DNA of 45,810 nucleotides. Source: a virus. Taxonomy: Duplodnaviria; Heunggongvirae; Uroviricota; Caudoviricetes. The notes beneath the pieces were generated by a model. The model had not been told where the DNA came from. It saw nothing but the letters and a program-made list of their open reading frames with translations, and made no database searches. The stretch's first letter is position 1; every line of letters starts with the position of its first letter. Positions 19,577 to 21,678 of this stretch are shown piece after piece. Location of the stretch: the IMG/VR virus record IMGVR_UViG_2521172732_000010. One strand, written 5' to 3'. A program made the position numbers and the translations under genes.

Positions 19577-21476
19577 CAGGCTGCGGCATTTTGTCCGCGC
19601 CGGGCTTCGCTCACTCTTCAGGCCGGAGCCACAGACTGCCGTTGAATGGGCGGATGCTAATTACTATCTCCCGAAAGAATCCGCATACCAGGAAGGGCGC
19701 TGGGAAACACTGCCCTTTCAGCGGGCCATCATGAATGCGATGGGCAGCGACTACATCCGCGAGGTGAATGTGGTGAAGTCTGCCCGTGTTGGTTATTCCA
19801 AAATGCTGTTGGGTGTTTATGCCTACTTCATAGAGCATAAGCAGCGCAACACCCTTATCTGGTTGCCGACGGATGGTGATGCCGAGAACTTTATGAAAAC
19901 CCACGTTGAGCCGACTATTCGTGATATTCCGTCGCTGCTGGCGCTGGCCCCGTGGTATGGCAAAAAGCACCGGGATAACACGCTCACCATGAAGCGTTTT
20001 ACCAATGGTCGTGGCTTCTGGTGCCTGGGCGGTAAAGCGGCAAAAAACTACCGTGAAAAGTCGGTGGATGTGGCGGGTTATGATGAACTTGCTGCCTTTG
20101 ATGATGATATTGAACAGGAAGGCTCTCCGACGTTCCTGGGCGATAAGCGTATTGAAGGCTCGGTCTGGCCAAAGTCCATCCGTGGCTCCACGCCCAAAGT
20201 GAGAGGCACCTGCCAGATTGAGCGTGCAGCCAGTGAATCCCCGCATTTTATGCGTTTTCATGTTACCTGCCCGCACTGCGGGGAGGAGCAGTACCTTAAA
20301 TTTGGCGATAAAGAGACGCCGTTTGGCCTCAAATGGACGCCGGATGATCCCTCCAGCGTGTTTTATCTCTGCGAGCATAATGCCTGCGTCATCCGCCAGC
20401 AGGAGCTGGACTTTACTGATGCCCGTTATATCTGCGAAAAGACCGGGATCTGGACCCGTGATGGCATTCTCTGGTTTTCGTCATCCGGTGAAGAGATTGA
20501 GCCGCCTGACAGTGTGACCTTTCACATCTGGACAGCGTACAGCCCGTTCACCACCTGGGTGCAGATTGTCAAAGACTGGATGAAAACGAAAGGGGATACG
20601 GGAAAACGTAAAACCTTCGTGAACACCACGCTCGGTGAGACGTGGGAAGCGAAAATCGGCGAACGTCCGGATGCTGAAGTGATGGCAGAGCGGAAAGAGC
20701 ATTATTCAGCGCCCGTTCCCGACCGTGTGGCTTACCTGACCGCCGGTATCGACTCCCAGCTGGACCGCTACGAAATGCGCGTATGGGGATGGGGGCCGGG
20801 TGAGGAAAGCTGGCTGATTGACCGGCAGATTATTATGGGCCGCCACGATGATGAACAGACGCTGCTGCGTGTGGATGAGGCCATCAATAAAACCTATACC
20901 CGCCGGAATGGTGCAGAAATGTCGGTATCCCGTATCTGCTGGGATATTGGCGGGATTGACCCGACTATTGTGTATGAACGCTCGAAAAAGCATGGGCTGT
21001 TCCGGGTGATCCCCATTAAAGGGGCATCCGTCTACGGAAAGCCGGTGGCCAGCATGCCACGTAAGCGAAACAAAAACGGGGTTTACCTTACCGAAATCGG
21101 TACGGATACCGCGAAAGAGCAGATTTATAACCGCTTCACACTGACGCCGGAAGGGGATGAACCGCTTCCCGGTGCCGTTCACTTCCCGAATAACCCGGAT
21201 ATTTTTGATCTGACCGAAGCGCAGCAGCTGACTGCTGAAGAGCAGGTCGAAAAATGGGTGGATGGCAGGAAAAAAATACTGTGGGACAGCAAAAAGCGAC
21301 GCAATGAGGCACTCGACTGCTTCGTTTATGCGCTGGCGGCGCTGCGCATCAGTATTTCGCGCTGGCAGCTGGATCTTAGTGCACTGCTGGCGAGCCTGCA
21401 GGAAGAGGATGGTGCAGCAACCAACAAGAAAACACTGGCAGATTACGCCCGTGCCTTATCCGGAGAGGATGAATGA
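19551..21476 (+). CDS. A: terminase large subunit
   Basis: 641-aa ORF matching lambda gpA. Confidence 0.95.
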
Positions 21477-21678
21477 CGCGACAGGAAGAACTTGCCGCTG
21501 CCCGTGCGGCACTGCATGACCTGATGACAGGAAAACGGGTGGCAACGGTACAGAAAGACGGACGGAGAGTGGAGTTTACGGCCACTTCCGTGTCTGACCT
21601 GAAAAATACATTGCGGAGCTGGAAGTGCAGACCGGCATGACACAGCGACGCAGGGGACCTGCAGGATTTTATGTATGA
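21473..21678 (+). pseudogene. W: head-tail joining protein W, frame-disrupted as sequenced
   Basis: Start [44 protein letters not shown] then an A-run (21602-21606) shifts the frame; lambda-like C-terminus ...[14 protein letters not shown] is in the shifted frame ending at 21676-21678. Confidence 0.7.

Follow-up and report, generated by a model that had tools for sequence, protein, structure and literature searches.

The protein gpW of bacteriophage lambda, a head completion protein also described as head-tail adaptor Ad1 (PF02831; structure 1HYW), is encoded between the terminase gene A and the portal gene B, and its reading frame overlaps both neighbours through ATGA tetranucleotides. Elsewhere in lambda, G and T are subject to a programmed -1 frameshift, which takes place at a slippery heptamer conserved across homologues. 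We compared these systems with the W gene in a 45,810-nucleotide stretch of DNA (hereafter the window), a lambdoid prophage of Escherichia coli at icd. W in the window occupies the same A-W-B position with ATGA at both ends, and its DNA is 98% identical to that of lambda W; unlike lambda gpW, its frame breaks after codon 44 as assembled. Judged from consensus sequences, this frameshift is very probably an assembly artefact, a homopolymer miscounted in a draft of 2012. The features concerned are the following:

19551..21476, + strand: gene A, an intact terminase large subunit of 641 aa that ends in an overlap with the start of W
21473..21640, + strand: W open reading frame as assembled, truncated, 55 aa, with its TGA stop at 21638-21640
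21602..21606, + strand: A5 homopolymer, the place where W is one nucleotide short
21607..21678, + strand: displaced frame with the intact gpW C-terminus (23 residues), stop within the ATGA at 21675-21678
21675..23276, + strand: gene B, portal protein, 533 aa, intact
28550..28972 and 28954..29388: open reading frames of G and T

The order terminase A, W, portal B is that of lambda and of the complete genome of E. coli strain 15A, with overlapping codons at 21473-21476 (A stop and W start) and at 21675-21678 (W stop and B start). A preliminary description of this DNA had given W a normal start, an A-run of five and a premature stop, and all three were borne out: the ATG at 21473 overlaps the terminase A stop as ATGA, direct reading of 21602-21606 gives five A, and the TGA at 21638-21640 follows 55 codons. 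It had also placed an intact gpW C-terminus and ATGA junction with B in the other frame, as 21607-21678 indeed reads, and had correctly traced the missing W-sized entry in the list of open reading frames to the frameshift caused by A5. Lambda had been given six A; we ran the alignment to lambda W that had been proposed, and NC_001416 (2633..2839) has A6 at that position, with six substitutions relative to the window besides. The W genes of E. coli 95-3322 and phage PhiR49_1, both intact, match the window at every position over 219 nt apart from one additional A. Since A5 versus A6 is a deterministic comparison, chance is not at issue.

The 55-aa product consists of gpW residues 1-44 followed by 11 residues out of frame. 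It scored 84.5 bits against the gpW profile (PF02831) and covered profile positions 1-44 of 66, so that no complete domain is present in one frame as assembled; this is because a single base is missing, and the rest of the domain sits in the -1 frame. Adding back one A yielded a complete domain of 68 aa, identical at 68/68 residues to lambda gpW (PDB 1HYW) and scoring 128.9 bits. Both versions lie above the Pfam gathering score of 22.5. The 3' half of W (21598-21665) folds to a stem-loop just upstream of the portal start codon, where it might conceivably contribute to coupling the translation of W and B.

Through the fragments of E and L and the C-terminal fragment of stf, we identified the window as part of the GenBank draft contig AIHS01000015.1 (448 kb; GCA_000250575.2), which it matches at 100% over 14974-45810 in three pieces with 0 mismatches and 0 gaps (14974-35672, 22300-42965 and 29839-45810). 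The E. coli DECA collection drafts appeared in 2012 under accessions AIEV to AIHS, with AIHS00000000 closing the series; going by accession order and serotype group, the isolate may be DEC15E. E. coli O111:H21 strain 15A, for which a complete genome exists (NZ_CP077477.1), has a near-identical prophage beside icd. The prophage reads int, xis, exo/bet/gam, cI/cro, O/P, the nin region, Q and the lysis genes, followed by Nu1-A-W-B-C-D-E, the tail genes, J, lom, stf, tfa and cargo genes. The cargo lies at 42069-45810, between tfa and a second, truncated tfa, and comprises a Mn catalase, two ferritin-like DUF892 proteins, a KGG stress protein and a SAM methyltransferase; the methyltransferase product (44780..45448) is very common, with 13,959 blocks in the assembly collection. 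A partial icd duplication ~5 kb past the window marks where the integrated region really ends on the right, so that the window stops at gene boundaries and not at attR. Genes for tRNA Ile-GAT and Thr-TGT lie at 14592-14747, directly downstream of Q, where the RefSeq annotation of 15A gives tRNA-Thr only. Inside a DUF4222 gene beside xis is an IS903-like insertion of 1057 bp (1648-2704), absent from strain 15A. It encodes a DDE_Tnp_1 transposase, has inverted repeats of 18 bp at its termini (GGCTTTGTTGAATAAATC) and has duplicated 9 bp of its target (GTTCTGCCT). A laboratory lambda with engineered W and E mutations (of the Wam/Eam kind) was considered and rejected, the window being a natural icd prophage whose E ochre codon also occurs in wild isolates and metagenomes.

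To place W among its relatives, we collected independent assemblies of the lineage through three window products, the portal protein, the truncated Q and the N-terminal fragment of E; the relatives came from GenBank drafts, ENA metagenome assemblies and Logan contigs. Two lesions in the window proved to be shared. The major capsid gene E (24974-25999) carries an in-frame ochre codon at residue 233 (AAA to TAA, 25670-25672), which is also found in the complete 15A genome, where it is annotated as 'internal stop', and in at least nine independent assemblies including metagenome contigs; the loci from independent assemblies number ten (L141/L150, L145/L149, L148 and L152-L157 in our numbering). 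Because 15A and independent assemblies have it in common, we regard the ochre codon as real and inherited, a lesion that leaves the lineage unable to build capsids. In the late-gene antiterminator gene Q (14015-14529), a 4-bp deletion (ATTC, between 14096 and 14097) brings a stop after 27 codons. It recurs in L141 and L145-L147 and is absent from strain 15A; several of the loci with the E ochre codon also have it, while L146 and L147 have the Q deletion only. By this distribution, the Q deletion is a marker of a sub-lineage and a second genuine lesion that inactivates its gene. With the E ochre codon and the Q deletion, the prophage is genuinely defective irrespective of W.

The W deletion is distributed differently from these two lesions. 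The 15A genome, whose W is intact, and every lineage relative covering W carry A6, and within the lineage A5 occurs only in AIHS01000015.1 (L151/L169/L171). Compared with 15A, the window differs by the 1057-bp IS903-like insertion, six substitutions, the 4-bp deletion in Q and five single-base changes of run length. We sorted these differences site by site according to whether independent assemblies carry them, with the difference at 35654 assigned to neither group. Those also present in independent assemblies, and hence real markers of the lineage, are ordinary SNPs (5996, 7008 and 45777) and one 4-bp deletion, that in Q. Seven alleles were seen only in AIHS01000015.1, and 7/7 lie in runs of at least four bases. 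Besides the A5 of W, they are:

8062, unstranded: private substitution breaking a G5 run (GGGGG to GGTGG)
8126..8131, unstranded: private A6 where relatives have A7, intergenic, just downstream of the cI-like repressor gene
14582..14587, unstranded: private T6 where relatives have T7, intergenic, between Q and the tRNA genes
27471, + strand: private substitution in tail gene U that alters the leading base of a C4 run (CCCC to TCCC); C in twelve relatives
32375..32379, + strand: private T5 where relatives have T6, frameshifting the minor tail gene L (32268-32965)
39810..39814, + strand: A5 where 15A and AP045064 have A4, frameshifting stf (38473..39849, then ..41368)

Runs of at least four bases make up 5.9% of the window, and the probability that both private substitutions would fall in them is ~0.0035. 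The nearest relative, L145, gave the same picture, differing from the window at four sites over 20,363 nt, all in homopolymers. In strain 15A, stf is a single open reading frame of 964 aa, and the product of the N-terminal fragment (38473..39849) had no record in the assembly collection. The split outwardly resembles the stf frameshift of lambda PaPa; here it is one of the run changes private to this assembly.

We also followed the contig beyond the prophage sequence under study. AIHS01000015.1 runs 5,558 nt past the right end of the window, and over this flank its sole difference from 15A and from the AIHO draft (L172) is a 1-nt insertion (G to GG, position 19600 of L171), ~3.6 kb to the right of the window end. 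The insertion breaks a 194-aa gene with an HTH domain, of which 15A, AIHO and a third assembly (L173) have an intact copy and which is missing from the gene calls of AIHS01000015.1; L173 lacks the insertion and has two SNPs of its own. Given its place 3.6 kb outside the window, private single-base indels are not confined to phage late genes. Over ~51 kb, the changes private to AIHS01000015.1 thus amount to six single-base indels and two, possibly three, substitutions.

Such a spectrum bears on the possibility that the deletion is a real slippage mutation, representing secondary decay of a prophage already without capsid protein E and antiterminator Q. The lesions in E and Q are real and common to independent assemblies, and with both genes lost, selection on W would be relaxed and frameshifts in W, L and stf would be neutral. 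Homopolymers are moreover natural hot spots of slippage during replication in vivo, and the contig truly diverges from 15A in places, through shared SNPs and real, private-looking features such as the IS903-like insertion, and the strain is thus more than a copy of 15A. Were the deletion real, W would be a true pseudogene whose product keeps helix 1 and the hairpin and is without the second helix and the C-terminal tail, a loss that we read from the known 1HYW structure and that presumably leaves the product non-functional. Head-tail joining would then fail, yet with no phenotype, since no capsids are made anyway. The W change is found in no other member of the lineage, however, and private indels outnumber substitutions by at least 2:1 (6 versus at most 3). 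In mutation-accumulation work on E. coli, indels arise at roughly a tenth of the rate of substitutions. The excess of indels here is far from that ratio, the two resolved private substitutions also lie inside runs, and the W and L changes turn up again in assemblies that are full of errors or stem from the same project. On balance, we consider a real mutation unlikely, though it is the chief alternative to an artefact.

We searched for these alleles outside the lineage. The exact 55-aa W product was recorded in 229 blocks of the assembly collection, of which we inspected 10 loci from seven GenBank single-contig chromosomes. One chromosome (GCA_910593955.1) carried it in four different prophages (L005-L008). 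Each of the ten loci had 3-14 indels in the 4,247-nt Nu1-A-W-B segment, nearly all of them 1-nt deletions that struck the same runs repeatedly (A5, A6, A7, the W A6, T6 and G5), whereas no indels were found in that segment at ten control loci with 23-45 substitutions each. In these GenBank-only E. coli chromosomes (L005-L014), 1-nt deletions at the same homopolymers break up the genes for terminase, portal, protease, capsid and tail alike. A homolog with exactly this shorter C-terminus, which the preliminary description had named as evidence against a frameshift, thus formally exists; it lends no support to a functional short W, as the neighbouring genes there are shattered by homopolymer deletions. 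Short-W homologues in assemblies broken in this way argue instead for an artefact.

The truncated L product (221 aa) was recorded in two contigs only, AIHS01000015.1 and AIFK01000024.1. The latter belongs to another 2012 draft of the DECA project and holds a different prophage, 97.2% identical, with the same change from T6 to T5; it has three further 1-nt indels in 11 kb when compared with relatives that are 99.3% identical. The confinement of the L frameshift to two drafts of one project points to a systematic, project-specific miscall.

Taken together, the W deletion is a one-base change of run length (A6 to A5) that is private to one assembly within the lineage. It is accompanied by other private run-associated changes in and outside the gene, and it recurs in unrelated, error-laden assemblies (the 55-aa W product), as the L allele does in a same-project draft. 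From this pattern we infer a technical cause, an error of base calling or assembly rather than mutation. The consensus of GCA_000250575.2 would have called the six A of W as five while the draft was being built, and the strain most probably carries a normal gene for a 68-aa gpW, with a protein identical to lambda W. The description of W as frameshifted accordingly holds for the sequence as given and probably not for the phage gene itself, the deletion being private to one draft. Some observations sit less easily with a miscount: the implied error rate of the contig is modest (~1 per 6-7 kb), some longer runs (A7 in gene A and a T8) were called as in relatives, in vivo slippage targets the same kind of site, and in a dead prophage genuine frameshifts in W, L and stf would escape selection.

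A further possibility is that A5 is real and that full-length W is made by recoding, through -1 ribosomal frameshifting or transcriptional slippage at CUG AAA AAU with the aid of a stem-loop. A stretch of 86 nt starting at 21595 has a folding energy of -25.4 kcal/mol (z = -2.9 versus shuffled sequences), with a stem that begins ~10 nt past the run, and programmed -1 frameshifting is known from lambda-like phages at another place, G/T. However, CUG AAA AAU lacks the canonical X XXY YYZ form of a slippery heptamer, a run of five A is too short for efficient polymerase slippage, and every intact A6 W gene has an identical stem-loop sequence, which is hence not specific to A5. The two-frame layout is also not conserved. 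Among 5,426 complete E. coli genomes, the W A5 allele had no exact match, with A6 at 4477 places (0/4477 for the two-frame layout); the A5 pattern likewise had no match in IMG/VR, where A6 was present in at least 120 contigs. Well-assembled homologues are all single-frame, and the A5 arrangement appears only in error-laden or single assemblies. With neither a slippery heptamer nor conservation, programmed frameshifting in W was rejected, and recoding at the run is extremely improbable. Hardly any more credible is a weaker form of the idea, in which the strain is truly A5 and a leaky site yields enough full-length gpW, with the change K45N, by non-canonical -1 slippage at CUG AAA AAU, upstream of the stem-loop.

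With a miscounted homopolymer as the preferred reading, the result matters mainly for quality control, and neither decay nor recoding should be read into the frameshifts that W, L and stf show in the window. The A6 of lambda-type W appears to be a recurrent miscall site, which gives rise to identical bogus 55-aa gpW entries in many public assemblies. In biological terms the prophage is truly defective in E, through the ochre codon, and, in the sub-lineage, in Q, through the 4-bp deletion.

Among known systems, the locus resembles those defective lambdoid prophages of E. coli in which decay proceeds through point lesions; the likeness lies in its icd site and its real lesions in E and Q. Unlike those two lesions, the W lesion was found in no other member of the lineage; inheritance, the mark by which we recognised a genuine pseudogene, holds for the E ochre codon and the Q deletion and fails for W. 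The likeness to the lambda G/T frameshift lies in a one-base change of frame inside a lambda late gene, and the W site differs in having neither the conserved slippery heptamer nor the conservation of G/T. Homopolymer consensus error, as in drafts from pyrosequencing or long reads, is already well known, and under this reading W would hold no new biology. The density of changes here (~1 per 6-7 kb) is far below that of the assemblies with a 55-aa W, and the likeness is drawn from the error pattern. That pattern consists of a single-base under-call of an A6 run private to one assembly, companion changes of one base in A7, T7, T6 and A4 runs together with the 1-nt insertion in the flank, and the miscounting of the same run in many unrelated assemblies with shattered genes.
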